Source: Escherichia coli (GTDB taxonomy: Bacteria > Pseudomonadota > Gammaproteobacteria > Enterobacterales > Enterobacteriaceae). From it: a DNA stretch of 64,000 nucleotides. Shown piece after piece: positions 3,048 to 63,112 of this stretch. A program made the position numbers and the translations under genes. Position 1 is the first letter of the stretch. Each line of letters opens with the position of its first letter. A model generated the notes under the pieces. The model saw only the letters and a program-made list of their open reading frames with translations, had not been told where the DNA came from and made no database searches. Location of the stretch: assembly GCF_044647545.1 (NCBI RefSeq), contig NZ_CP172818.1. The stretch is one strand, 5' to 3'.

Positions 3048-3881
3048 ATGCATGTTTTTGATAATAATGGAATTGAACTGAAAGCTGAGTGTTCGATAGG
3101 TGAAGAGGATGGTGTTTATGGTCTAATCCTTGAGTCGTGGGGGCCGGGTGACAGAAACAAAGATTACAATATCGCTCTTGATTATATCATTGAACGGTTG
3201 GTTGATTCTGGTGTATCCCAAGTCGTAGTATATCTGGCGTCATCATCAGTCAGAAAACATATGCATTCTTTGGATGAAAGAAAAATCCATCCTGGTGAAT
3301 ATTTTACTTTGATTGGTAATAGCCCCCGCGATATACGCTTGAAGATGTGTGGTTATCAGGCTTATTTTAGTCGTACGGGGAGAAAGGAAATTCCTTCCGG
3401 CAATAGAACGAAACGAATATTGATAAATGTTCCAGGTATTTATAGTGACAGTTTTTGGGCGTCTATAATACGTGGAGAACTATCAGAGCTTTCACAGCCT
3501 ACAGATGATGAATCGCTTCTGAATATGAGGGTTAGTAAATTAATTAAGAAAACGTTGAGTCAACCCGAGGGCTCCAGGAAACCAGTTGAGGTAGAAAGAC
3601 TACAAAAAGTTTATGTCCGAGACCCGATGGTAAAAGCTTGGATTTTACAGCAAAGTAAAGGTATATGTGAAAACTGTGGTAAAAATGCTCCGTTTTATTT
3701 AAATGATGGAAACCCATATTTGGAAGTACATCATGTAATTCCCCTGTCTTCAGGTGGTGCTGATACAACAGATAACTGTGTTGCCCTTTGTCCGAATTGC
3801 CATAGAGAATTGCACTATAGTAAAAATGCAAAAGAACTAATCGAGATGCTTTACGTTAATATAAACCGATTACAGAAATAA
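3048..3881 (+). CDS. mcrA: 5-methylcytosine-specific restriction endonuclease McrA (HNH)
   Basis: 277-aa ORF with C-terminal HNH motif (CENCG...HHVIPLSSGG...CPNCH). Confidence 0.9.
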   Translation: MHVFDNNGIELKAECSIGEEDGVYGLILESWGPGDRNKDYNIALDYIIERLVDSGVSQVVVYLASSSVRKHMHSLDERKIHPGEYFTLIGNSPRDIRLKMCGYQAYFSRTGRKEIPSGNRTKRILINVPGIYSDSFWASIIRGELSELSQPTDDESLLNMRVSKLIKKTLSQPEGSRKPVEVERLQKVYVRDPMVKAWILQQSKGICENCGKNAPFYLNDGNPYLEVHHVIPLSSGGADTTDNCVALCPNCHRELHYSKNAKELIEMLYVNINRLQK

Positions 3882-32648: not shown

Positions 32649-33033
32649 CTTGTTGTAAGCCGGATCGGAGGCAGCGTCTTCTGGTTGCGAAAAAATCATC
32701 CATCCGGCTGGTCAGCAACTGTAGTTGGTGATGTGACAGAGCCATTTCCCATGATAGTGTCCATTACAATGATGGACACTATTTCCCCGGAACCTGAACT
32801 CACCGCACAGGCGTTCTACATAAAACGCTTACGTTTCATTGTTGACTCGAACTCGACTTCAGATAAATCACGCTTCACCCTTGATGGAGCCTGTACATAG
32901 ATTTGTGTAATTGCCTGATTTTGATATGTTCAATTCACCTTCAAATGAAGGTGAATTTATGGCCGACAAACAATTACAGGCTCTGGCTGCGGTCAGTAAA
33001 GCATCGCATCCGGCGATAGATGCTGCATTAAAT

Positions 33034-37681: not shown

Positions 37682-38082
37682 GATTTTCATAAGGCGGATA
37701 GTGATACAGATGCCGCTATCCGCTTTCACATCAGAACGTATACTCGATACCTGCTTTACGGGGTGAAAAAAATCAATATAGCACTTCGATATCCGATAAA
37801 GTCGGTTCCCGGTAACAACAACAGAATCCTTTTTTAATTATTGTTTCGTTGTTTTTGGTGTGATTCAGAAAATAAATATTTTAGACAGTAGCCAGTCAGG
37901 CGTTAAAAATGGGGCGGATAGTGAGGCGGTTTTGGCTGCGCTTATTGAACATTTTCAGAATTGATCAGAATCCTTCTGTAGATTCGTAGCCAAAATACCC
38001 GTTCGGCAATGCTTCAGTTACGCGAAGAGGAATGGGTCTGAATTCTTTTTTTGGTTGTCAACTTTGGTAGTGTCTGGATTAT

Positions 38083-38286
38083 GTGATTATTAATTTAACT
38101 CCAGAAAGCAAAAAACGTCGACGAAGTGAACACCAGACATTCAGGAAGCAATTGATGCTTTATATAGCCAACGTCTGGGGCGTAAAGTCGCTGGGTGATG
38201 AGGTGAGACACTTACCCGTAAATGACGCTAATTCGCAAAATCCACGCACTCCAAACATTTGCGCAATACTTCCCGCCAGGACTTGA
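38083..38286 (+). CDS. Hypothetical 67-aa ORF in the interval where K-12 carries ycgY (possible remnant)
   Basis: Only + strand ORF of at least 60 aa between ymgE and treA; GTG start; no recognisable domain. Confidence 0.2.
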   Translation: MIINLTPESKKRRRSEHQTFRKQLMLYIANVWGVKSLGDEVRHLPVNDANSQNPRTPNICAILPART

Positions 38287-38378
38287 AAAACCGTCGTGAG
38301 AAAAAACCATAGCTATGGTGTTATCCGCCGACAACGCCATCCGGAGAAGCCGAATGACGTTGTCGGAGTAAGCGCTGG

Positions 38379-43765: not shown

Positions 43766-45685
43766 ATGAGTGGCGCTTTTAACAACGATGGTCGGGACAT
43801 ATCTCCCTTAATTGCAACCTCCTGGGAGAGATGCAATAAGCTGATGAAACGGGAGACATGGAACGTACCACACCAGGCCCAGGGCGTGACATTTGCTTCT
43901 ATTTATCGGCGTAAGAAAGCGATGCTGACGCTCGGGCAGGCTGCGCTGGAAGATGCCTGGGAATATATGGCACCGCGAGCGTGTGCGTTGCTTATCCTCG
44001 ATGAAACCGCCTGCATTCTCAGCCGTAATGGCGATCCGCAAACCTTGCAGCAACTAAGTACACTGGGATTCAATGACGGCACGTATTGCGCCGAGGGAAT
44101 TATTGGTACTTGTGCGCTATCGTTAGCGGCTATCTCTGGTCAGGCCGTGAAAACGATGGCCGATCAACATTTCAAACAGGCACTCTGGAACTGGGCCTTT
44201 TGCGCAACGCCGTTGTTTGACAGCAAGGGCCGATTGACGGGAACAATAGCGCTGGCGTGTCCGGTTGAACAAACTACCGCAGCTGATTTGCCGTTGACGT
44301 TGGCAATCGCACGCGAGGTCGGAAATTTACTGCTGACGGACAGTTTGCTCGCTGAAACTAACCGCCATTTAAATCAACTTAATGCCCTGTTAGAAAGTAT
44401 GGATGATGGCGTGATTAGCTGGGACGAGCAGGGTAATTTGCAATTTATCAACGCCCAGGCGGCGCGAGTCTTGCGCCTTGACGCGACGGCAAGTCAGGGA
44501 CGAGCAATCACTGAACTCTTAACGTTACCCGCCGTATTGCAACAAGCAATAAAACAGGCACATCCGCTCAAACACGTAGAAGCAACCTTTGAAAGTCAGC
44601 ACCAGTTTATTGATGCGGTGATAACCCTTAAACCGATAATAGAAACGCAGGGAACCAGCTTTATTTTGTTGCTCCATCCTGTGGAACAGATGCGGCAGTT
44701 AATGACCAGTCAATTAGGAAGAGTCAACCATACTTTCGCTCATATGCCACAGGACGATCCGCAAACCCGCCGCTTGATTCATTTTGGTCGCCAGGCGGCG
44801 CGCAGTAGCTTTCCTGTCCTGCTTTGTGGAGAAGAGGGCGTGGGCAAGGCACTGCTAAGTCAGGCAATTCATAATGAAAGTGAGCGTGCAGCGGGGCCTT
44901 ATATCGCCGTCAATTGTGAGTTATATGGTGATGCGGCGCTGGCGGAAGAATTTATTGGCGGCGATCGCACGGACAATGAAAATGGTCGTCTGAGTCGACT
45001 GGAACTGGCGCACGGCGGCACGCTGTTTCTTGAAAAGATTGAATATCTGGCGGTGGAGTTACAGTCTGCTTTGCTTCAGGTTATCAAGCAGGGTGTTATC
45101 ACGCGACTGGATGCGCGGCGTTTAATACCCATTGATGTCAAAGTGATTGCCACAACGACCGCGGACCTGGCAATGCTGGTGGAACAAAATCGCTTTAGTC
45201 GCCAGCTGTATTACGCGCTGCATGCATTTGAAATTACCATCCCGCCTCTGCGTATGCGGCGTGGCAGCATTCCGGCGCTGGTGAATAACAAATTACGCAG
45301 CCTTGAAAAACGCATCTCTACGCGGCTGAAAATTGATGACGATGCCCTCGCTCGCCTGGTTTCTTGTGCATGGCCAGGCAACGATTTTGAACTTTACAGC
45401 GTCATCGAGAATCTTGCACTGAGTAGTGATAACGGGCGCATTCGCGTCAGTGATTTACCTGAACATCTGTTTACCGAGCAGGCGACAGATGATGTCAGCG
45501 CCACTCGCCTTTCCACCAGTCTGTCATTTGCGGAAGTTGAAAAAGAGGCAATTATTAACGCAGCCCAGGTCACAGGCGGTCGCATTCAGGAAATGTCGGC
45601 TTTACTTGGAATCGGCCGCACTACGCTGTGGCGGAAAATGAAGCAACATGGCATTGATGCAGGGCAGTTTAAGCGCCGGGTATGA
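43766..45685 (+). CDS. dhaR: Transcriptional activator DhaR (GAF/PAS + AAA+ + Fis-type HTH)
   Basis: 639 aa from ATG 43766 (MSGAFNNDGR...). Confidence 0.9.
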   Translation: MSGAFNNDGRDISPLIATSWERCNKLMKRETWNVPHQAQGVTFASIYRRKKAMLTLGQAALEDAWEYMAPRACALLILDETACILSRNGDPQTLQQLSTLGFNDGTYCAEGIIGTCALSLAAISGQAVKTMADQHFKQALWNWAFCATPLFDSKGRLTGTIALACPVEQTTAADLPLTLAIAREVGNLLLTDSLLAETNRHLNQLNALLESMDDGVISWDEQGNLQFINAQAARVLRLDATASQGRAITELLTLPAVLQQAIKQAHPLKHVEATFESQHQFIDAVITLKPIIETQGTSFILLLHPVEQMRQLMTSQLGRVNHTFAHMPQDDPQTRRLIHFGRQAARSSFPVLLCGEEGVGKALLSQAIHNESERAAGPYIAVNCELYGDAALAEEFIGGDRTDNENGRLSRLELAHGGTLFLEKIEYLAVELQSALLQVIKQGVITRLDARRLIPIDVKVIATTTADLAMLVEQNRFSRQLYYALHAFEITIPPLRMRRGSIPALVNNKLRSLEKRISTRLKIDDDALARLVSCAWPGNDFELYSVIENLALSSDNGRIRVSDLPEHLFTEQATDDVSATRLSTSLSFAEVEKEAIINAAQVTGGRIQEMSALLGIGRTTLWRKMKQHGIDAGQFKRRV

Positions 45686-45784
45686 AAGACAGAAACGATT
45701 TCTGATACATCAGAGTGATCTGTATTTCATTCCGGCGCACGCTAACAATTTTCAGCATCGTTTAAGGGCTTGTCTATCCCGCAC

Positions 45785-48639
45785 TTAAAAGCTGAAGCGA
45801 TATCCTCCGTTGACTTGCTTCTGATCAAAGAGGTTACCCTGCGTGTAATCCGCTTCGAGATAGAATGTGTGCTGTTTGTTATACTGTGCACTGACTCCCA
45901 CGCCGTTATTCCAGCCATTACCTTTGAAACTGTACTTCTCCCGGGAGTTGTTCAACAGATATTCGGTATCCCCTGAAAACTCGCGGATAGCGCCAGTCTT
46001 CACATAGACATTCAGCTGGCTGTTGCCTGCGGTGATGTCATACCCCAGTATCATGCTGGCACGCCCCAGCAGCGATTCGTAGTGATTCAGATGTATATTG
46101 AGGCCATTACTCGCCTTCATAGTCATCTCATTCTGGTGGCTGTATGTAAGCTGGGTTTGCGGCTGAATATAGAACCCATAACCAGTAGGGGACAGGTTGA
46201 ACCTCTGCCCGGCTTCCAGGGAGATGCTCATTCCATTCGCAGTGCCGTTGGCGTTAACGCCGTTGTTCTGACTGTCCAGTACGTGGGGAAATGATTTTGG
46301 CGCGATGCTTTTATAACGAGATCGCTGTAAAACTGTTTTGTGCCATGTAACTGGCGTACATTCCCATGTAGTCTACGTGTGTTACGCTCCCGCTATAGTC
46401 CGGCGATGCATGTGTTGAGCCAATATACAGACCGACATACAACGGCATTACATCAGAGAGACGTTTATCCCCACCAAACTGGATACCGCTGTAACCCATG
46501 TCAAAGCCGCTCAGTTTGCCACTGGCAAAGGAGTCTGAGGCTTCCCCCATAACTGCGCAACCAGATATTACCGTCTTTACTCTGATTTCGCAGGTCACCC
46601 ATCCGTTGCATCAGCGTACGGTTTTCAACATAGTTCAATAAGTAACCGACATTGAGATAATTGCCGCCAGCATCTGCGGTCGTGGTGGGTTTAGGCGTGG
46701 GAGCGGGTTCAGGCGTAGGATCGGGGTTGACTATGGAGGCTGAGCGGGAAATGGTGTGGTTCAGGATTAGGAGTCGGTTCCGGAACTGTCCCGGAAGCGT
46801 AAAGCTCCCAGTTAGTGCCATTTTTACGCACATCAGACATATCCCCCAACTCAACCTGAGAAGACGCGCTGAACGAGGCCGCGCCGTCAGTGGTTATTAC
46901 CACGGTCAGAACTTCATTTCCCGTCGTGGCCTCGCTGCCCTGGTTCAGCATAGCTATATGTGATTACCAGCACTACTCCCGCTGATATTCAATAAATCCC
47001 CTTTATTATTAACGCCATTACCCTCGCCAACAACATCAGCACGCATAATAAAGGTACTGTTACCGCTCAGGTTCTCTACGTTTAATGTGGCAAATGTGCC
47101 GGCAGTTGACCCGTGGCTGGCAAAATCGACAGTTGAATGGCTCAGCGCCAGCGTGTCGAGATTAGAATTACTTGTTACGTTCCAGACGCTGTTATTCATT
47201 GCAACGTCCAGTTTTCCGCCATTGACATTATCGCTGAGGGAGGAACCTGTCCAAACCGACCCAGGGTGCATATCCAGATTGATTAGCCCACCTTTGGAAA
47301 GAACGCTACCGTTGATAAGCATACGACCCGAGGCGTTGATGCGGCTGGCGGCATAACCATCGTCATGTTGCGTTGCGATGGCCATCTGGTCGGGTGTACT
47401 CATATCAATGACCAGATCGCTCGTGAGGTCGATCTGGCTGTTGGTCATGGCATAAATTCCCCTGGCTCCTGCCGCGCCGGTGATAGCCAAACTGTCTCCG
47501 GTTATTCTACCGCCGCTGAGAGCCCACAAACCCAGCGCCAGACTGCCATTACGATCAACTGTAATATCGGTATTTTGCATGTTGACAACAGCCGTTGCCG
47601 TCTGGGCCGAGGCACCATAAGAACCGCCGGAAAAGATGCTGTTTCGTTGCGCTGCCGTGCCAGTAAAATTGATTATCGCGTCTGAACCACTGGTGACGAG
47701 GCCACCGCCCTGCGCGGAAGAAATATGGCTATCTGCACCGATAGTGGTTGTACCACCACGAACTTCGACGCCATTGGCCGCGGCTCCAGTTACATCAACA
47801 GTGAGTGCATTCGCGCTAACCTGGCCAAAGCTCCAGAGGCCGTGAGCATTATCGCCATTGGTTTTAATGGTACTGTTTGTTCCGAGATCGACAACAGAGT
47901 TTTTCTGTACGTTTATCCCCATGGCGCTGTAGCCCTGAACATCGATTGTCAGGTCTGTAGCCGTAAAACGCGCAGCACCATTGGCGTTATTGCCGTTGAG
48001 ACCACCGATATAAACACCTGTACTTCCATCGGTCGTGATTTTACTTCCGCTTCCAAGATCGACACTGGTGCCATAGTCATTGATGGTTAGGCCTATACCG
48101 TTCGAGTTTTCAATGGTGAATTGAGTGGCTGTTAGTGTTGAGCTATGCCCAATAATGATGCCGTCATCGTTACTCTTAATGGTGCTGCCTGTGCCTAAGT
48201 CAGCATGGGTATAGTCACCAATTAAGTTAATGCCGATGGCAGAGGTTTGACCAACAACATCTACTGTGAGTCGGTTAGCTGTCAGGGAGCTGTTTTTGCC
48301 CTGAATAATGATTCCTTTTGCATATCCAGAGGCGTCGTTGACATTGACGGTGACATCATTACCCAGGTTGATATTGCCAGGCGTGTTTCCTGCTGGGGTC
48401 ATTACACCATAGAGGTTTCCTGATGGATCGGCGGTATCTCCTGTAATTCTGTCACCATCATTAATAGTAATATTGGTGCCATATTGACTTCCTGTATCAG
48501 CAGCTATCAGCAGGGGGGAAAAGATAATTGCATTCAAACCAATAGCGCCAAATTTTATCAGTTGAATTGAGGGCGAACGGATTTTTAATTCAGCGAGACG
48601 ATCTGCTTTGGTATTCCCATTGTGTTGTTTGATGCCCAT
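45785..48639 (-). pseudogene. ycgV: Autotransporter adhesin YcgV with multiple frameshifts in the C-terminal third
   Basis: Five ORF fragments (46954..48639 passenger; 46709..46951; 46501..46854; 46311..46598; 45785..46231 beta-barrel ending YRFSF) jointly span an autotransporter of roughly 950 codons. Confidence 0.75.
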
Positions 48640-48980
48640 ACCACTCCTATATAGTACCCAGACTATGGGTCTATGGATTTTGTCATTTTGTTTAAATCAA
48701 TGAATAATATCCTCTTATCATCATGATATTTGTATGGTGCAATCATGATGAGCTTCTCAGAGAATAATTCTCTATTACCGGGCAAAATCAGGAACACAGG
48801 AATTAATATATATTTAACATCCCCCTTACAAAGGTGAGTTTATATCGAGTTATTCCCTAAGTTGTCGTTACTTATTCCAATTCGTTACTATAAATATGGC
48901 AAAAATATTACAACAAACAGCGGTTAAAAAATTTGGTGAAGATTTTTTGTAATAATCCTAATTAGTTATGGGAATTTCGC

Positions 48981-49163
48981 TTGATGTATCTGCATAACAA
49001 AAACAATATGCGCCATTTTTGCATTACTAATAAGAAAAAGCAAAAAACATCGATATTCATTTTTGGTCAATGGGTTTTCTGGCCTATCGTTGTTATTGTG
49101 CTACTGGTTATCATTTTCATCTTGCCAGCATATTGGAGCGTGATCAATTTTGATCAGCTGTGA
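48981..49163 (+). CDS. Hypothetical small membrane protein (60 aa, one predicted TM helix)
   Basis: ORF MMYLHNKNNMRHFCITNKKKQKTSIFIFGQWVFWPIVVIVLLVIIFILPAYWSVINFDQL in AT-rich ycgV-ychF spacer; weak SD. Confidence 0.2.
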   Translation: MMYLHNKNNMRHFCITNKKKQKTSIFIFGQWVFWPIVVIVLLVIIFILPAYWSVINFDQL

Positions 49164-49409
49164 AGGGGGCTGATGTGTAGTGATACAAAAACTTACGTTA
49201 TATCACTGCTAATGAGATATCCGGCATCTGAACACTTATGTCTTTAATTATTCTCGTGGTTCACTATAGGCAATAAGCACAAAAGTGTAGGATGTTACAA
49301 GAATGAATTAGGACTCTATGAAATGAAAAATCCACGCAATTGCGTGGATTTAATGGTTTTTTTGATTCTCATGAAGTTCAATGAAACCTCATGAGACAAC
49401 AAATTTTAT

Positions 49410-54714: not shown

Positions 54715-55565
54715 TTAAAGCATGGCTCTGTGCAATGGGGAAAGATTAACGCCTTTCGCCACAAAGCCATTGAGCCATTCCGGGGCTTGCTCTAGCACCT
54801 GGCGGGCTTCAGACTCTGTATCAAATTCAGCAAAGACACAGGCCCCTGTCCCAGTCAGGCGCGACGGGGCGTATTCTAACAGCCAGGAAAGCACCGCATC
54901 AACCTCGCGAAAACGTTTTCTTGCGATAACCTCGCAATCATTGCTGAATTCACATTTTAGCAACGTTTCTATTGACCTTTTTGGCGTATTGCGCGGGAGT
55001 TCAGGATCTTTAAAAATCACCGGTGTCGGAATACTTACACCAGGGTGCGCCACCAGATACCACTTCTCTGGCGGATCCACCGGCGTTAGTATTTCACCAA
55101 CGCCTTCGGCAAACGCGGCATGCCCCCGAACAAAGACAGGAACATCTGCGCCCAGCGTCAGTCCCATTTCCGCCAGCTCATCCATGCTTAGCCCGCATTG
55201 CCAGAGATGATTTAATGCCACCAGGACCGTCGCGGCATTGGATGAACCACCGCCGAGACCGCCGCCCATCGGCAAACGCTTGTCAATGCTGATATTCGCA
55301 CCGCTTCCCGTCGGAAGGCGCCCGCTGTCTGCCGCAGTTTTCATCAATAACCGCGCTGCGCGAACGATCAGGTTATCTTCATGTTCCACGCCTTCAACGG
55401 GCGTTAACAGACGAATATCCCCATCGTCACGAAGCTCAATGTTGATGGTGTCGCCGTAATCAAGAAACTGAAACAGCGTTTGCAGCGTGTGGTAACCATC
55501 CGCACGCTGACCGGTAATGTATAAAAACAGATTAAGTTTTGCCGGAGAGGGCCACTGTGTCCGCA

Positions 55566-55566
<1 letters not shown>
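54715..55566 (-). CDS. ispE: 4-diphosphocytidyl-2-C-methyl-D-erythritol kinase IspE
   Basis: 283-aa ORF. Confidence 0.95.
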
Positions 55567-56258
<692 letters not shown>

Positions 56259-56402
56259 CTATGTTCACGTTGTCTTAATTGCCAGAATCTAACGGCTTTC
56301 AGCAATTACTCCAAAAGGGGGCGCTCTCTTTTATTGATCTTACGCATCCTGTATGATGCAAGCAGACTAACCCTATCAACGTTGGTATTATTTCCCGCAG
56401 AC

Positions 56403-57659
56403 ATGACCCTTTTAGCACTCGGTATCAACCATAAAACGGCACCTGTATCGCTGCGAGAACGTGTATCGTTTTCGCCGGATAAGCTCGAGCAGGCGCTTGA
56501 CAGCCTGCTTGCGCAGCCGATGGTGCAGGGCGGTGTGGTGCTGTCGACGTGTAACCGCACAGAACTTTATCTCAGCGTTGAAGAACGGGATGACCTGCAA
56601 GAGGCGCTCATTCGCTGGTTGTGTGATTACCATAATCTCAACGAAGACGATCTGCGTAATAGCCTCTACTGGCATCAGGATAACGATGCGGTCAGTCATT
56701 TAATGCGCGTTGCCAGTGGGCTTGATTCTCTCGTCCTTGGCGAGCCGCAGATCCTCGGTCAGGTTAAAAAAGCGTTTGCCGATTCGCAAAAAGGTCATAT
56801 GAAGGCCAGAGAACTGGAACGCATGTTTCAGAAATCTTTCTCTGTGGCGAAACGCGTTCGCACTGAAACAGATATCGGTGCCAGTGCTGTGTCTGTCGCT
56901 TTTGCGGCTTGTACGCTGGCGCGGCAGATCTTTGAATCGCTCTCTACGGTGACGGTACTGCTGGTGGGTGCGGGCGAAACCATCGAGCTGGTGGCGCGTC
57001 ATCTGCGTGAACACAAAGTACAGAAGATGATTATCGCCAACCGCACTCGCGAACGTGCCCAAATTCTGGCAGATGAAGTCGGCGCGGAAGTGATTGCCCT
57101 GAGCGATATCGACGAGCGTCTGCGCGAAGCCGATATCATCATTAGTTCCACCGCCAGCCCGTTACCGATTATCGGGAAAGGCATGGTGGAGCGGGCATTA
57201 AAAAGCCGTCGCAACCAACCAATGCTGCTGGTGGATATTGCCGTTCCGCGCGATGTTGAGCCGGAAGTTGGTAAACTGGCGAATGCTTATCTTTATAGCG
57301 TTGACGATCTGCAAAGCATTATTTCGCACAATCTGGCGCAGCGTAAAGCCGCAGCAGTTGAGGCGGAAACTATAGTCGCTCAGGAAACCAGCGAATTTAT
57401 GGCGTGGTTGCGTGCACAAAGCGCCAGCGAGACCATTCGCGAGTATCGCAGCCAGGCAGAGCACGTTCGCGATGAGTTAACCGCCAAAGCGTTAGCGGCC
57501 CTTGAGCAGGGCGGCGACGCCCAAGCCATTATGCAGGATCTGGCATGGAAACTGACTAACCGCCTGATCCATGCGCCAACGAAATCACTTCAACAGGCCG
57601 CCCGTGACGGGGATAACGAACGCCTGAATATTCTGCGCGACAGCCTCGGGCTGGAGTAG
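56403..57659 (+). CDS. hemA: Glutamyl-tRNA reductase HemA
   Basis: 418 aa from ATG 56403 ([21 protein letters not shown]...). Confidence 0.95.
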
Positions 57660-57700
57660 CAGTACATCATTTTCCTTTTTTACAGGGTGCATTTACGCCT

Positions 57701-58783
57701 ATGAAGCCTTCTATCGTTGCCAAACTGGAAGCCCTGCATGAACGCCATGAAGAAGTTCAGGCGTTGCTGGGTGACGCGCAAACTATCGCCGACCAGGAAC
57801 GTTTTCGCGCATTATCACGCGAATATGCGCAGTTAAGTGATGTTTCGCGCAGTTTTACCGACTGGCAACAGGTTCAGGAAGATATCGAAACCGCACAGAT
57901 GATGCTCGATGATCCTGAAATGCGTGAGATGGCGCAGGATGAACTGCGCGAAGCTAAAGAAAAAAGCGAGCAACTGGAACAGCAATTACAGGTTCTGTTA
58001 CTACCAAAAGATCCTGATGACGAACGTAACGCCTTCCTCGAAGTCCGTGCCGGAACCGGCGGCGACGAAGCGGCGCTGTTCGCAGGCGATCTGTTCCGTA
58101 TGTACAGCCGTTATGCCGAAGCCCGCCGCTGGCGGGTAGAAATCATGAGCGCCAGCGAGGGTGAACATGGTGGTTATAAAGAGATCATCGCCAAAATTAG
58201 CGGTGATGGTGTGTATGGTCGTCTGAAATTTGAATCCGGCGGTCATCGCGTGCAGCGTGTGCCTGCTACGGAATCGCAGGGGCGTATTCATACTTCTGCT
58301 TGTACCGTTGCGGTAATGCCAGAACTGCCTGACGCAGAACTGCCGGACATCAACCCGGCAGATTTGCGCATAGATACTTTCCGCTCGTCAGGGGCGGGTG
58401 GTCAGCACGTTAACACCACCGATTCGGCAATTCGTATTACTCACTTGCCGACAGGGATTGTTGTTGAATGTCAGGACGAACGTTCACAACATAAAAACAA
58501 AGCTAAAGCACTTTCTGTACTTGGTGCTCGCATCCACGCTGCAGAAATGGCAAAACGGCAACAGGCCGAAGCGTCTACCCGTCGTAACCTGCTGGGGAGT
58601 GGCGATCGCAGCGACCGTAACCGTACTTACAACTTCCCGCAGGGGCGCGTTACCGATCACCGCATCAACCTGACGCTCTACCGTCTGGATGAAGTGATGG
58701 AAGGTAAGCTGGATATGCTAATTGAACCGATTATCCAGGAACATCAGGCCGACCAACTGGCGGCGTTGTCCGAGCAGGAATAA
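57701..58783 (+). CDS. prfA: Peptide chain release factor RF1
   Basis: 360-aa ORF with GGQ motif. Confidence 0.95.
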
Positions 58784-59616
58784 TGGAATATCAACACTGG
58801 TTACGTGAAGCAATAAGCCAACTTCAGGCGAGCGAAAGCCCGCGGCGTGATGCTGAAATCCTGCTGGCGCATGTTACCGGCAAAGGGCGTACTTTTATTC
58901 TCGCCTTTGGTGAAACGCAGCTGACTGACGAACAATGTCAGCAACTTGATGCGCTACTGACGCGTCGTCGCGATGGTGAACCTATTGCTCATTTAACCGG
59001 GGTGCGAGAATTCTGGTCGCTGCCGTTATTTGTTTCGCCAGCGACCTTAATTCCGCGCCCGGATACGGAGTGTCTGGTGGAGCAGGCACTGGCGCGGTTG
59101 CCTGAACAACCTTGCCGTATTCTCGATCTCGGGACGGGTACCGGGGCGATTGCGCTGGCGCTGGCTAGCGAGCGCCCGGACTGCGAAATTACCGCTGTAG
59201 ATCGTATGCCAGATGCTGTCTCTCTGGCGCAACGTAATGCTCAGAATCTGGCGATCAAAAACATCCATATTCTGCAAAGCGACTGGTTTAGCGCGCTAGC
59301 CGGGCAGCAGTTTGCGATGATTGTCAGTAATCCGCCGTATATTGACGAGCAGGACCCACATCTTCAACAAGGCGATGTCCGCTTTGAGCCGCTCACTGCG
59401 CTGGTTGCGGCAGACAGTGGAATGGCAGACATCGTGCATATCATCGAACAGTCGCGTAACGCGCTGGTATCCGGCGGCTTTCTGCTTCTGGAACATGGCT
59501 GGCAGCAGGGCGAAGCGGTGCGACAGGCATTTATCCACGCGGGATATCATGACGTCGAAACCTGTCGGGACTATGGTGATAACGAGCGCGTAACGCTCGG
59601 CCGCTATTATCAATGA
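58783..59616 (+). CDS. prmC: Release-factor glutamine methyltransferase PrmC (HemK)
   Basis: 277-aa ORF with NPPY motif; start overlaps prfA stop. Confidence 0.95.
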   Translation: MEYQHWLREAISQLQASESPRRDAEILLAHVTGKGRTFILAFGETQLTDEQCQQLDALLTRRRDGEPIAHLTGVREFWSLPLFVSPATLIPRPDTECLVEQALARLPEQPCRILDLGTGTGAIALALASERPDCEITAVDRMPDAVSLAQRNAQNLAIKNIHILQSDWFSALAGQQFAMIVSNPPYIDEQDPHLQQGDVRFEPLTALVAADSGMADIVHIIEQSRNALVSGGFLLLEHGWQQGEAVRQAFIHAGYHDVETCRDYGDNERVTLGRYYQ

Positions 59617-60005
59617 CAAGTTTTTCTACACTGCTTAGTGTTCATCTTATTAGTATCGCGCTTTCTGTTGGGCTATTAACCTTACGTTTCTGGCTACGTT
59701 ATCAGAAGCATCCACAGGCATTTGCGCGCTGGACGCGCATTGTGCCGCCGGTTGTCGATACGCTGTTATTGTTAAGCGGCATTGCGTTGATGGCTAAAGC
59801 GCACATCCTGCCATTTTCCGGGCAGGCACAGTGGCTGACTGAAAAGCTGTTTGGAGTTATCATTTATATCGTTTTGGGTTTTATTGCACTCGATTATCGT
59901 CGTATGCACAGTCAGCAGGCGCGCATTATTGCCTTCCCGCTGGCGTTGGTGGTGCTGTACATCATCATTAAACTCGCCACCACAAAAGTACCGTTACTGG
60001 GGTAA
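59613..60005 (+). CDS. sirB2: Inner membrane protein SirB2 (YchQ)
   Basis: 130-aa ORF; 4-nt overlap with prmC. Confidence 0.85.
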   Translation: MTSFSTLLSVHLISIALSVGLLTLRFWLRYQKHPQAFARWTRIVPPVVDTLLLLSGIALMAKAHILPFSGQAQWLTEKLFGVIIYIVLGFIALDYRRMHSQQARIIAFPLALVVLYIIIKLATTKVPLLG

Positions 60006-60008
60006 GTC

Positions 60009-60818
60009 ATGAGATCGTTAGCTGATTTCGAATTTAATAAAGCGCCATTGTGCGAAGGCATGATCCTGGCTTGCGAAGCAATCCGCCGCGATTTTCCCTC
60101 GCAAGATGTTTACGACGAACTGGAGCGTCTCGTTAGTCTGGCGAAGGAAGAAATCAGCCAGCTTCTGCCTTTAGAAGAGCAGCTGGAAAAACTGATCGCG
60201 CTGTTTTACGGCGACTGGGGATTTAAAGCCTCACGCGGCGTTTATCGTCTTTCCGATGCATTATGGCTGGACCAGGTGTTAAAGAATCGACAGGGCAGTG
60301 CGGTATCATTAGGTGCCGTTTTATTATGGGTCGCGAATCGTCTCGATTTGCCACTGCTGCCGGTGATTTTCCCTACGCAGCTGATATTGCGCTTTGAATG
60401 TCCGGATGGCGAAATTTGGCTGATTAATCCTTTTAACGGTGAATCGTTAAGCGAACATATGCTGGACGTATGGTTAAAGGGAAATATCAGCCCGTCGGCG
60501 GAACTGTTTTATGAAGACCTTGATGAAGCTGATAACATTGAGGTAATCCGCAAATTGCTGGATACACTCAAAGCCTCGTTGATGGAAGAAAATCAGATGG
60601 AGCTGGCGCTACGTACCAGCGAAGCTTTATTACAATTTAACCCGGAAGATCCCTATGAAATTCGCGATCGCGGGTTGATTTATGCGCAACTGGATTGCGA
60701 ACACGTTGCGTTGAACGATTTAAGTTATTTCGTTGAACAGTGTCCGGAAGACCCGATCAGCGAAATGATCCGTGTGCAAATAAATAACATCGCGCATAAA
60801 CATATTGTGCTGCATTAA
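60009..60818 (+). CDS. sirB1: SirB1 (YchA)
   Basis: 269-aa ORF. Confidence 0.85.
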   Translation: MRSLADFEFNKAPLCEGMILACEAIRRDFPSQDVYDELERLVSLAKEEISQLLPLEEQLEKLIALFYGDWGFKASRGVYRLSDALWLDQVLKNRQGSAVSLGAVLLWVANRLDLPLLPVIFPTQLILRFECPDGEIWLINPFNGESLSEHMLDVWLKGNISPSAELFYEDLDEADNIEVIRKLLDTLKASLMEENQMELALRTSEALLQFNPEDPYEIRDRGLIYAQLDCEHVALNDLSYFVEQCPEDPISEMIRVQINNIAHKHIVLH

Positions 60819-60844
60819 TTAATCGACATTTTACTCAAGATTAA

Positions 60845-61708
<864 letters not shown>

Positions 61709-61785
61709 TCTTTTTTGCCTGAAAACTAAAGCCTTAGCGTTCTGCGTTAAGGTTTTTTTCATGGGTGCCGGATACAAAAAAGGCC

Positions 61786-61820
61786 GCAGGCTGTTACCCC
61801 TGCGGCCGTTTTCGGGCGCA
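61786..61820. terminator. Bidirectional hairpin terminator (kdsA on + strand, ldr on - strand)
   Basis: ggccgcagg-ctgttaccc-ctgcggcc flanked by aaaaa upstream and gtttt downstream. Confidence 0.6.
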
Positions 61821-61856
61821 TATTGCCATCACGGCAGCCTGACGCCCGTTTTCACC

Positions 61857-61964
61857 TTACTTCCGGTTACGCCACCAGCTGACAATCACTGCGGTAATAA
61901 TTCCCGCCAGGATCGGTGCTGCCAGGTCGTGCCAGAAAGTCATGGCAAACTGCGCGAGCGTCAT
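61857..61964 (-). CDS. ldr: Type I toxin Ldr, copy 1 (35 aa)
   Basis: Encodes MTLAQFAMTFWHDLAAPILAGIITAVIVSWWRNRK; which K-12 paralog (ldrA/B/C) is not resolved. Confidence 0.85.
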   Translation of the reverse strand: MTLAQFAMTFWHDLAAPILAGIITAVIVSWWRNRK

Positions 61965-62139
61965 ATAGCCGCCTTGTTGTAATGACAACATTTTGCGGCT
62001 ATTCTTGAATTGTTCTGGTTCAAGATTAGCCCCCGTTCTGTTGTCAGGTTGTACCTCTCAACGTGCGGGGGGGTTCTCTTTCCAGCAACCAATGCCACCA
62101 GGGATAAAGCCCCCGCAACATTGCGCCTCACCGGATAAC

Positions 62140-62225
62140 GCCGGCTTGGTGTGGATACTACGTCTCAATTCATCTTCACTTCATCCCTGAAATGTTTGCA
62201 ATGAAGAGTGCATTCCGGTTTTTCA
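62140..62225 (+). ncRNA. rdl: Candidate Rdl antisense RNA, copy 1 (position inferred)
   Basis: Conserved repeat segment upstream of ldr on the opposite strand, ending in gcattccggttttt; boundaries approximate. Confidence 0.4.
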
Positions 62226-62232
62226 ACAGCTG

Positions 62233-62518
62233 TTATTTCTTTTTACCCTTCCTTTCCCCCCCCTTTTTCCCACCTTTATGCCCTAAACAAATACTCATAC
62301 CCTTCAATCAAATTACCCTTATTTCCTCTCATCGGGTTCTCTCACAACAATCAGGATAAAGCCCCCCATTCCCTCCGGATACCCGGCTGGATATCGTCTC
62401 AATTCATCTCACTCATCCCAAATGTTCAAAATCATCCTCAACCCAGTCGTTTCATGAGTGCTCTGGATGATGCTTCCAGCTCGGGTTGCCAATATTTACT
62501 TGCAGAAGAGATAAAGAC
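62233..62518. repeat. Degenerate partial ldr/rdl repeat unit without a toxin ORF
   Basis: Aligns loosely to the leader/rdl part of the flanking units (ggataaagccccc...tctcaattcatct...); C/T-rich low-complexity tract at 62240-62290. Confidence 0.6.
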
Positions 62519-62599
62519 AAAAAGGGCCGCAGGCTGTTACCCCTACGGCCGGTTTCGGGCGCATATTGCCATCACGGCAGCCTGACGCCCGTTTTCACC

Positions 62600-62707
62600 T
62601 TACTTCCGGTTACGCCACCAGCTGACAATCACTGCGGTAATAATCCCCGCCAGGATCGGTGCCGCCAGGTCGTGCCAGAAAATCATGGCAAACTGCGCGA
62701 GCGTCAT
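62600..62707 (-). CDS. ldr: Type I toxin Ldr, copy 2 (35 aa)
   Basis: Encodes MTLAQFAMIFWHDLAAPILAGIITAVIVSWWRNRK. Confidence 0.85.
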   Translation of the reverse strand: MTLAQFAMIFWHDLAAPILAGIITAVIVSWWRNRK

Positions 62708-62879
62708 ATAGCCGCCTTGTTGTAATGACAACATTTTGCGGCTATTCTTGAATTGTTGATGGTTCAAGATTAGCCCCCGTTCTGTTGTCAGGTTTTACCT
62801 CTCAACGTGCGGGGGTTTTCTCTTTCCAGCAACCAATGCCACCAGGGATAAAGCCCCCGCAACATTGCGCCTCACCGGA

Positions 62880-62970
62880 TAACGCCGGCTTGGTGTGGAT
62901 ATTACGTCTCAATTCATCTTCACTTCATCCCTGAAATGTTTGCAATAAAGAGTACATTCCGGCTTTTCAA
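62880..62970 (+). ncRNA. rdl: Candidate Rdl antisense RNA, copy 2 (position inferred)
   Basis: Same conserved segment as copy 1, ending in acattccggctttt. Confidence 0.4.
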
Positions 62971-63112
62971 CAGCTGTTGCAGTGGTTTCGTGCAGGTTGT
63001 GGTACAGGCTCGCAATTCTGATTAACGACCTGTTCAGGTAGTATGAAGAAATACAATAAGCAGGAATTTATATTATCTCCCCCGATTTCTGTCATCAGAG
63101 GAGATATAACTG

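Follow-up and report, generated by a model that had tools for sequence, protein, structure and literature searches.

The window analysed here, a 64-kb stretch of DNA, contains an ldr/rdl array between kdsA and chaA, where a repeat scan reveals two direct-repeat LDR units. The left boundary gene, kdsA (3-deoxy-8-phosphooctulonate synthase; 60854–61708, plus strand), is a 284-aa ORF collinear with K-12 kdsA, and lies within a block that is 100% identical to the genome Ecol_881, in which the collinear gene is annotated kdsA. The right boundary gene, chaA (cation/proton antiporter; 63113–64000, minus strand), is an ORF collinear with K-12 and Ecol_881; its 3′ part is present and the gene runs off the window end. 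Between the two genes, LDR unit 1 (61774–62235, 462 nt), delineated by the direct-repeat families D1 and D2, is the equivalent of K-12 LDR-A, and LDR unit 2 (62517–62978, 462 nt), delineated by direct repeats and alignment with K-12, is the equivalent of K-12 LDR-B/C. The units share 96.8–98% identity (14 mismatches and one gap), and their starts are 743–744 bp apart in the record. Two elements separate them, an anomalous segment of 208 nt (62236–62443) and a 73-nt inter-unit linker (62444–62516), the latter being, by K-12 collinearity, the rest of the canonical 535-bp period.

Peptides, Rdl models and the alignment of the units with K-12 agree that this is an ldr/rdl type I toxin-antitoxin array with two intact toxin copies, as originally predicted; of the predicted layout of two units of about 450 bp, the number of units holds and the measured length is 462 nt. 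This locus is the classical long direct repeat (LDR) array of the E. coli chromosome, for which the K-12 array of LDR-A, -B and -C serves as reference (Kawano et al. 2002, as cited in PMC4147584). Both the ldr/rdl system and its position are already known, as is the variation in its copy number from one E. coli strain to another (PMC2887945, PMC4147584).

Each unit encodes a toxin of 35 codons on the minus strand. Specifically, the product of ldr-1 (61857–61964; Thr9, Val26) is MTLAQFAMTFWHDLAAPILAGIITAVIVSWWRNRK, and the product of ldr-2 (62600–62707; Ile9, Val26) is MTLAQFAMIFWHDLAAPILAGIITAVIVSWWRNRK. Both minus-strand ORFs are borne out as predicted, including T versus I at residue 9, which is the sole difference between Ldr-1 and Ldr-2. 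The two peptides fill the whole 35-position Pfam profile PF13940 (Ldr_toxin), scoring 89.2 bits for Ldr-1 and 85.3 bits for Ldr-2 against a cut-off of 27 bits. Exact matches to Ldr-1 and Ldr-2 occur in 2,642 and 13,922 blocks of a public assembly collection, respectively. Compared with K-12 LdrA, LdrB and LdrC, the window peptides are identical at 33–34 of 35 residues: residue 9 is Ile or Thr, as in K-12, while the substitution A26V is present in both window peptides, and K-12 LdrB has an additional Gly29 relative to them.

Opposite each toxin leader, the Rfam rdlD model RF01813 (gathering score 50) identifies an antisense antitoxin RNA on the plus strand, rdl-1 at 62012–62079 (68 nt; 73.4 bits, E = 1e-14) and rdl-2 at 62756–62821 (66 nt; 83.6 bits, E = 2e-17), with full model coverage in both units. 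The folds contain the conserved hairpin in both cases, with z-scores of −3.1 for rdl-1 and −4.5 for rdl-2. The terminal 3′ U-tract of rdl-1 is shortened by two changes relative to K-12 (GGGGGGGUUCUCU). In both units, rdl starts 47–48 nt upstream of the ldr start codon on the opposite strand, compared with 47 nt in K-12, and is placed antisense to the ldr 5′ UTR, clear of the ribosome-binding site and the start codon.

Downstream of the toxin genes, a terminator scan identifies intrinsic terminator hairpins of the ldr-1 mRNA (61782–61807, minus strand; −24.5 kcal/mol, z = −5.2) and of the ldr-2 mRNA (62525–62550, minus strand; −20.8 kcal/mol, z = −3.1). On the minus strand, hairpin and T-run lie 49 nt past each ldr stop codon; that of ldr-1 is composed of a GC-rich 9-bp stem followed by TTTTTTG. 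Each hairpin stands between an A-run and a T-run, and the plus-strand tail, GTTTTC, falls below the scan threshold. The original prediction had described a bidirectional terminator hairpin and a conserved Rdl segment in each unit. The Rdl segment is confirmed by the covariance model, which scores above its gathering score in both units; the terminator is confirmed in the minus-strand direction and plausible in the plus-strand direction, given the sub-threshold tail. A simple consensus scan of the region found no sigma-70 promoter, so the transcription starts rest on K-12 homology.

By this organization, each 462-bp unit would give rise to a terminator-ended ldr mRNA from the minus strand, with a long 5′ UTR and a coding sequence for a 35-residue hydrophobic membrane toxin, and to an Rdl RNA of ~66 nt from the plus strand, opposite the ldr 5′ UTR, which would pair with the leader and thereby block toxin synthesis. 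Studies of K-12 describe Ldr as a small pore-forming toxin of the inner membrane that arrests growth when overproduced (PMC12643268, PMC4147584); overexpression of K-12 LdrD or LdrA stops growth or is lethal, and the cognate Rdl counteracts it (PMC4147584, PMC12643268). Rdl has been proposed to block a leader ORF, ldrX, that is coupled to ldr translation, in the manner of hok/mok/sok, although this is unproven (PMC4147584). The work on K-12 LdrD/RdlD and LdrA suggests that toxicity, the translational block and ldrX coupling would apply to the units described here.

The units also resemble the hok/sok type I toxin-antitoxin system. Both systems comprise a small membrane toxin, a stable mRNA and a long structured 5′ UTR (PMC4147584), and in both a short antisense RNA encoded in cis pairs with the leader and not with the toxin start codon (PMC4147584); the leader ORF proposed to exert control is mok for hok and ldrX for ldr (PMC4147584). 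The toxin families differ, being Hok in the one and Ldr/Fst in the other. The Rfam sok model gives weak matches to both ldr leaders, at 26–27 bits against a gathering score of 59, which fits the analogy; since these are below threshold, the two systems are taken as analogous in mechanism, with no membership implied.

In K-12 MG1655, ldrA/rdlA, ldrB/rdlB and ldrC/rdlC lie between kdsA and chaA with a period of 535 bp. The K-12 array shares with the window the locus, the flanking genes, the ldr, rdl and terminator parts and their internal spacing, and the window units align with K-12 LDR-A, -B and -C at a mean column identity of 98%. Window positions 61709–62235 are collinear with the K-12 stretch that begins at the kdsA stop and closes with LDR-A (unit 1 showing 97.7% identity to K-12 segment 2021–2547), and positions 62444–63112 are collinear with K-12 from the linker through LDR-C to chaA. 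The 73-nt linker is collinear with K-12 2548–2620 and 3083–3155, and is 100% identical in many E. coli genomes. Two differences stand out: the window has two units where K-12 has three, and, where unit 1 meets the linker, it carries an additional 208 nt, which place the copies 743 bp apart instead of 535 bp. The kdsA–chaA intergenic distance is accordingly 1,404 bp in the record, as against 1,196 bp for a two-unit or ~1,731 bp for a three-unit array. The alignment with K-12 thus shows that the predicted departure from three 535-bp units, in spacing and in copy number, is real in the record.

The number of units varies among the kdsA–chaA loci that we inspected, a sample biased towards the relatives of the window and hence no basis for a frequency estimate. 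Eight loci have one unit (L007, L008, L012, L013, L015, L016, L023 and L024); two units at 535-bp spacing are present at L002–L006, L009, L010, L014 and L017–L021 and in O157:H7 strain 2159 (~536 bp), the last of which resembles the window in its two units but lacks the 208-nt segment; three-unit arrays were seen in K-12 and MS6193. A difference of counts places two-unit arrays in at least ~10% of 5,426 complete E. coli genomes, this being a lower bound. BLAST coverage classes were rejected as copy-number classes, one genome of the 74% class having two units and another genome three. The two-unit array at 535-bp spacing is a common natural variant of E. coli, that is, an ordinary polymorphism. 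Lineage-specific duplication and loss of Ldr loci (PMC2887945) and the tandem organization of LDR units (PMC4147584) have been described previously.

Five of the inspected genomes (L003; L004, which is Ecol_881; L017; L019; and L021) match the window at 100.000% identity to the left and to the right of 62236–62443. The left identical block covers window positions 55000–62235, or the part of it that each locus holds, and in L021 extends over 7,236 nt with no mismatch or gap; the right identical block covers positions 62444–64000 (1,557 nt) in all five. In five of five genomes the left and right blocks directly abut, and the 208 nt are absent. By comparison, full-coverage matches of the window to complete E. 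coli genomes show only 97–98% identity, a range that had raised Shigella or a divergent Escherichia as a possible source; the match to Ecol_881 described next led us to reject this.

Ecol_881 (NZ_CP019029.1) provides the closest comparison. It is 99.96–100% identical wherever it is collinear with the window, with four mismatches and no gaps over ~49 kb of collinear sequence; its low rank among the genome matches is due only to islands and an allele swap. The two units and their flanks correspond base for base; Ecol_881 contains two copies each of Ldr gene and Rdl at 535-bp spacing, and its Ldr proteins, WP_000170956.1 and WP_022645587.1, are annotated in RefSeq as Ldr family toxins. Within 8.8 kb around the locus, the two sequences differ in nothing but the 208-nt segment. 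As 743 minus 208 is 535, the canonical period underlies the array, and indeed the period, 743 bp as recorded, is exactly 535 bp once 62236–62443 are removed. The original prediction had named identity to a standard reference arrangement as the finding that would speak against it; such identity holds with the 208 nt set aside, and does not hold for the record as it is.

The 208-nt segment is itself homologous to the LDR unit, with a local alignment score of 137 against 47 ± 6 for shuffled sequences. In particular, its right 127 nt align with the final 203 nt of the unit: all 127 match, with no mismatches and no extra bases, and the remaining 76 template bases are missing in 33 small deletions. 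These 127 nt are thus an exact subsequence of the template, a property shared by 0 of 20,000 shuffles and by 0 of 20,000 pieces drawn at random from the window. The relation extends to the whole segment: a single 535-nt LDR period, made up of linker and unit, contains the full 208 nt as an exact subsequence, whereas it contains none of 5,000 composition-matched shuffles in this way. In terms of the template length needed, 202 nt of the segment require 444 nt and all 208 nt require 484 nt, whereas shuffled 202-nt versions require 842 ± 49 nt. Taken alone, the left 81 nt are marginally LDR-like (p ~0.016), and their local alignment is not significant. The scores for unit 1 and unit 2 as the single template (109 versus 115) are too close for either to be chosen, and the segment is a subsequence of both.

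The loss of template bases is neither uniform along the segment nor equal among the four bases. When the segment is embedded most parsimoniously, the share of template bases kept is 12% at the left and climbs to 82% close to the right end. In the local alignment, G is retained at 25% as against 65–81% for the other bases (Fisher p = 6e-11), and in the whole-period embedding the corresponding values are 12% and 43–53%. As a result, the segment contains 15 G and 77 C, and its GC skew of −0.67 is the extreme of the 64-kb window, the next value being −0.39 (z = −5.9).

We searched for the segment elsewhere. BLAST with an E-value limit of up to 10 found it in none of the 5,426 complete E. coli genomes, in which the best match was the right end of an ordinary LDR (35–38% coverage, ~73% identity), and the plasmids and phages searched gave no match. 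K-mers taken from three parts of the segment had no exact match in 100,044 species-representative genomes or in a metagenome collection. The ORFs of 55 aa and 125 aa that span the segment are absent from a collection of 15 billion proteins, and the window contains no second copy.

For a deletion-only, one-base-biased and graded copy within an assembly that is clean elsewhere, the best explanation is a technical product arising at a tandem repeat. We consider it highly probable, judging from the sequence pattern and the comparison with other genomes, that the locus is the known LDR array in its common two-unit form with a 535-bp period, and that the 208 nt are an artefact of sequencing or assembly. 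By this account, the 743-bp spacing would be caused by a thinned, deletion-only, G-depleted copy of adjacent LDR sequence and would not be biological. Such a copy could have arisen by either of two routes. A third 535-bp unit, real or present in a sub-population, may have been collapsed in the draft and partly restored by consensus building or polishing; alternatively, a low-quality, untrimmed read or contig end that re-reads unit 1 may have been joined in tandem. The former accounts more naturally for boundaries at which good sequence is neither lost nor duplicated. The two routes are inseparable, since the 535 nt directly preceding the segment also contain it as a subsequence. By either route, the true array would consist of two, possibly three, canonical units, with a real ldr spacing of 535 bp.

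A biological origin of the 208 nt can be conceived in several ways. The segment may be the product of a recent one-step event, such as a partial tandem duplication of LDR through highly error-prone, skipping templated synthesis, in which case the 743-bp spacing would be true and a junk copy of the ldr promoter/5′ UTR region would lie upstream of ldr-1. Such an event is in accordance with the fact that tandem repeats do duplicate, with the otherwise clean assembly around the segment, and with the location of the segment exactly at the unit/linker boundary, where the good flanks are neither lost nor duplicated. It is difficult to reconcile with 33–64 micro-deletions accompanied by no substitution, graded loss and the selective loss of one base, and with a segment unseen in the related genomes, metagenomes, plasmids and phages searched. 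To our knowledge, no bacterial process yields substitution-free micro-deletions with graded and one-base-selective loss, and we regard a one-step event as unlikely. We attach a similarly small likelihood to the propositions that the segment is real through some unknown skipping synthesis, or that the culture mixes two- and three-unit arrays through rapid copy-number switching. If real, the 208 nt would lie upstream of the ldr-1 promoter region and would interrupt neither gene.

Homology to the right part of the LDR unit, at the score given above, together with the three units of K-12, would also fit an old third unit that decayed into a pseudo-unit from a K-12-like three-unit ancestor. Decay needs time, yet the flanks are 100.000% identical to those of genomes without the segment, which effectively refutes this reading. 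Moreover, natural divergence in this array, as seen between unit 1 and unit 2, is dominated by substitutions, whereas the well-aligned part of the segment has 33 deletions and no substitution, and not one of the complete E. coli genomes searched retains such a remnant. A decayed unit is thus very improbable. Even less credible, and refuted by the comparisons below, is the insertion into the array of a small mobile element, either a MITE or a deletion derivative of an IS. Precedents for insertion exist, since the array of locus L022 holds a mini-IS150 of ~206 bp bearing terminal inverted repeats and flanked by a CCGG target duplication, and full IS elements are present at L011 and in the hits H93, H94 and H112. 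At the segment, by contrast, inverted repeats and a target-site duplication were not found; its comparison with the L022 element gives a score of 41 against 36 ± 6 for shuffles, that is, no similarity; no further copy exists in the window or in the E. coli genomes, plasmids or phages searched; and the sequence derives from the LDR unit itself. The L022 array was rejected as an independent case of the same spacing, as its 745 bp are coincidental and due to an unrelated mini-IS150 at a different position.

If the 208 nt are a technical artefact, as we favour, the source record probably needs correction at the tandem repeat. The original suggestion that the array had been remodelled is unsupported as biology, two units being ordinary and 743 bp being the sum of 535 bp and a probable 208-nt artefact; the 743-bp spacing is unfit as evidence for remodelling of the array, for a new LDR variant or for a pseudo-unit. 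The biological weight of the observation is small, and its practical value is that of a warning about 208 nt with a technical signature. The exact-subsequence test with its shuffle control offers quick detection of such thinned copies of repeats elsewhere. What speaks against an artefact is the marginal likeness of the left 81 nt to LDR sequence and the high base quality outside the segment, with no indels relative to Ecol_881 over ~49 kb, so that the garbled stretch is an isolated defect.

The plus-strand antitoxin RNA of the first LDR unit, rdl-1, is altered at its 3′ end (window positions 62072–62079), where two changes convert the terminal GGGGGUUUUCU to GGGGGGGUUCU. The changes shorten the U-tract behind the terminator stem and lower the Rfam score of the RNA (73 versus 84 bits). 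The relatives checked, the kdsA–chaA loci L021 and L022, share the altered end, as does the consensus of other genomes whose flanks are 100% identical, indicating that it is natural. The shortened U-tract might weaken termination of Rdl-1.

The 5′ leaders of both ldr genes, at 61962–62114 and 62705–62858 on the minus strand, give weak matches to the Rfam sok model (RF01794; gathering score 59), at 26–27 bits and E values of 0.003–0.005, and both matches terminate at the ldr start codon. This sub-threshold resemblance echoes the hok-like control that has been proposed for ldr.

In the close relative L022 (contig CASDMQ010000024.1, GCA_949281555.1), approximately 206 bp are inserted within LDR unit 1 at the equivalent of window position 62134/62135, corresponding to 8353–8562 of L022. 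The insertion is bounded by terminal inverted repeats (TGTACTG...CAGTACA) and accompanied by a CCGG target duplication. Because its ends resemble those of IS150, the insertion may be a mini-IS150. Owing to the insertion, the ldr-to-ldr distance in L022 is 745 bp (743 bp in the window), which is coincidental. In several E. coli genomes, the kdsA–chaA LDR array has full insertion sequences within it or adjoining it, including an IS3-family element between the two ldr genes of another such locus (3417–4786 of L011), and IS200C, IS481-family and IS150 elements associated with the array in the genome matches H93, H94, H112 and H115. Insertion sequences seem to land frequently at this array.

Elsewhere, the window differs in gene content from the near-identical E. 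coli strain Ecol_881 at three sites. Ecol_881 carries an additional 1.9 kb at 32890–32972 and a 6.7-kb cluster with genes for an iron ABC transporter and a TonB-dependent receptor at 37755–38377, while after ychF (45679–49292) the window has ycgV-like sequence where Ecol_881 has a large integrase-bearing island. Relative to Ecol_881, 1,586 nt of an autotransporter adhesin gene (12373–13958) are replaced by a stretch of equal length, with almost no DNA similarity and 41% identity between the proteins, while both flanks are 100% identical. The difference looks like a passenger-domain allele swap through recombination; the adhesin reading frame contains an internal stop in both strains.
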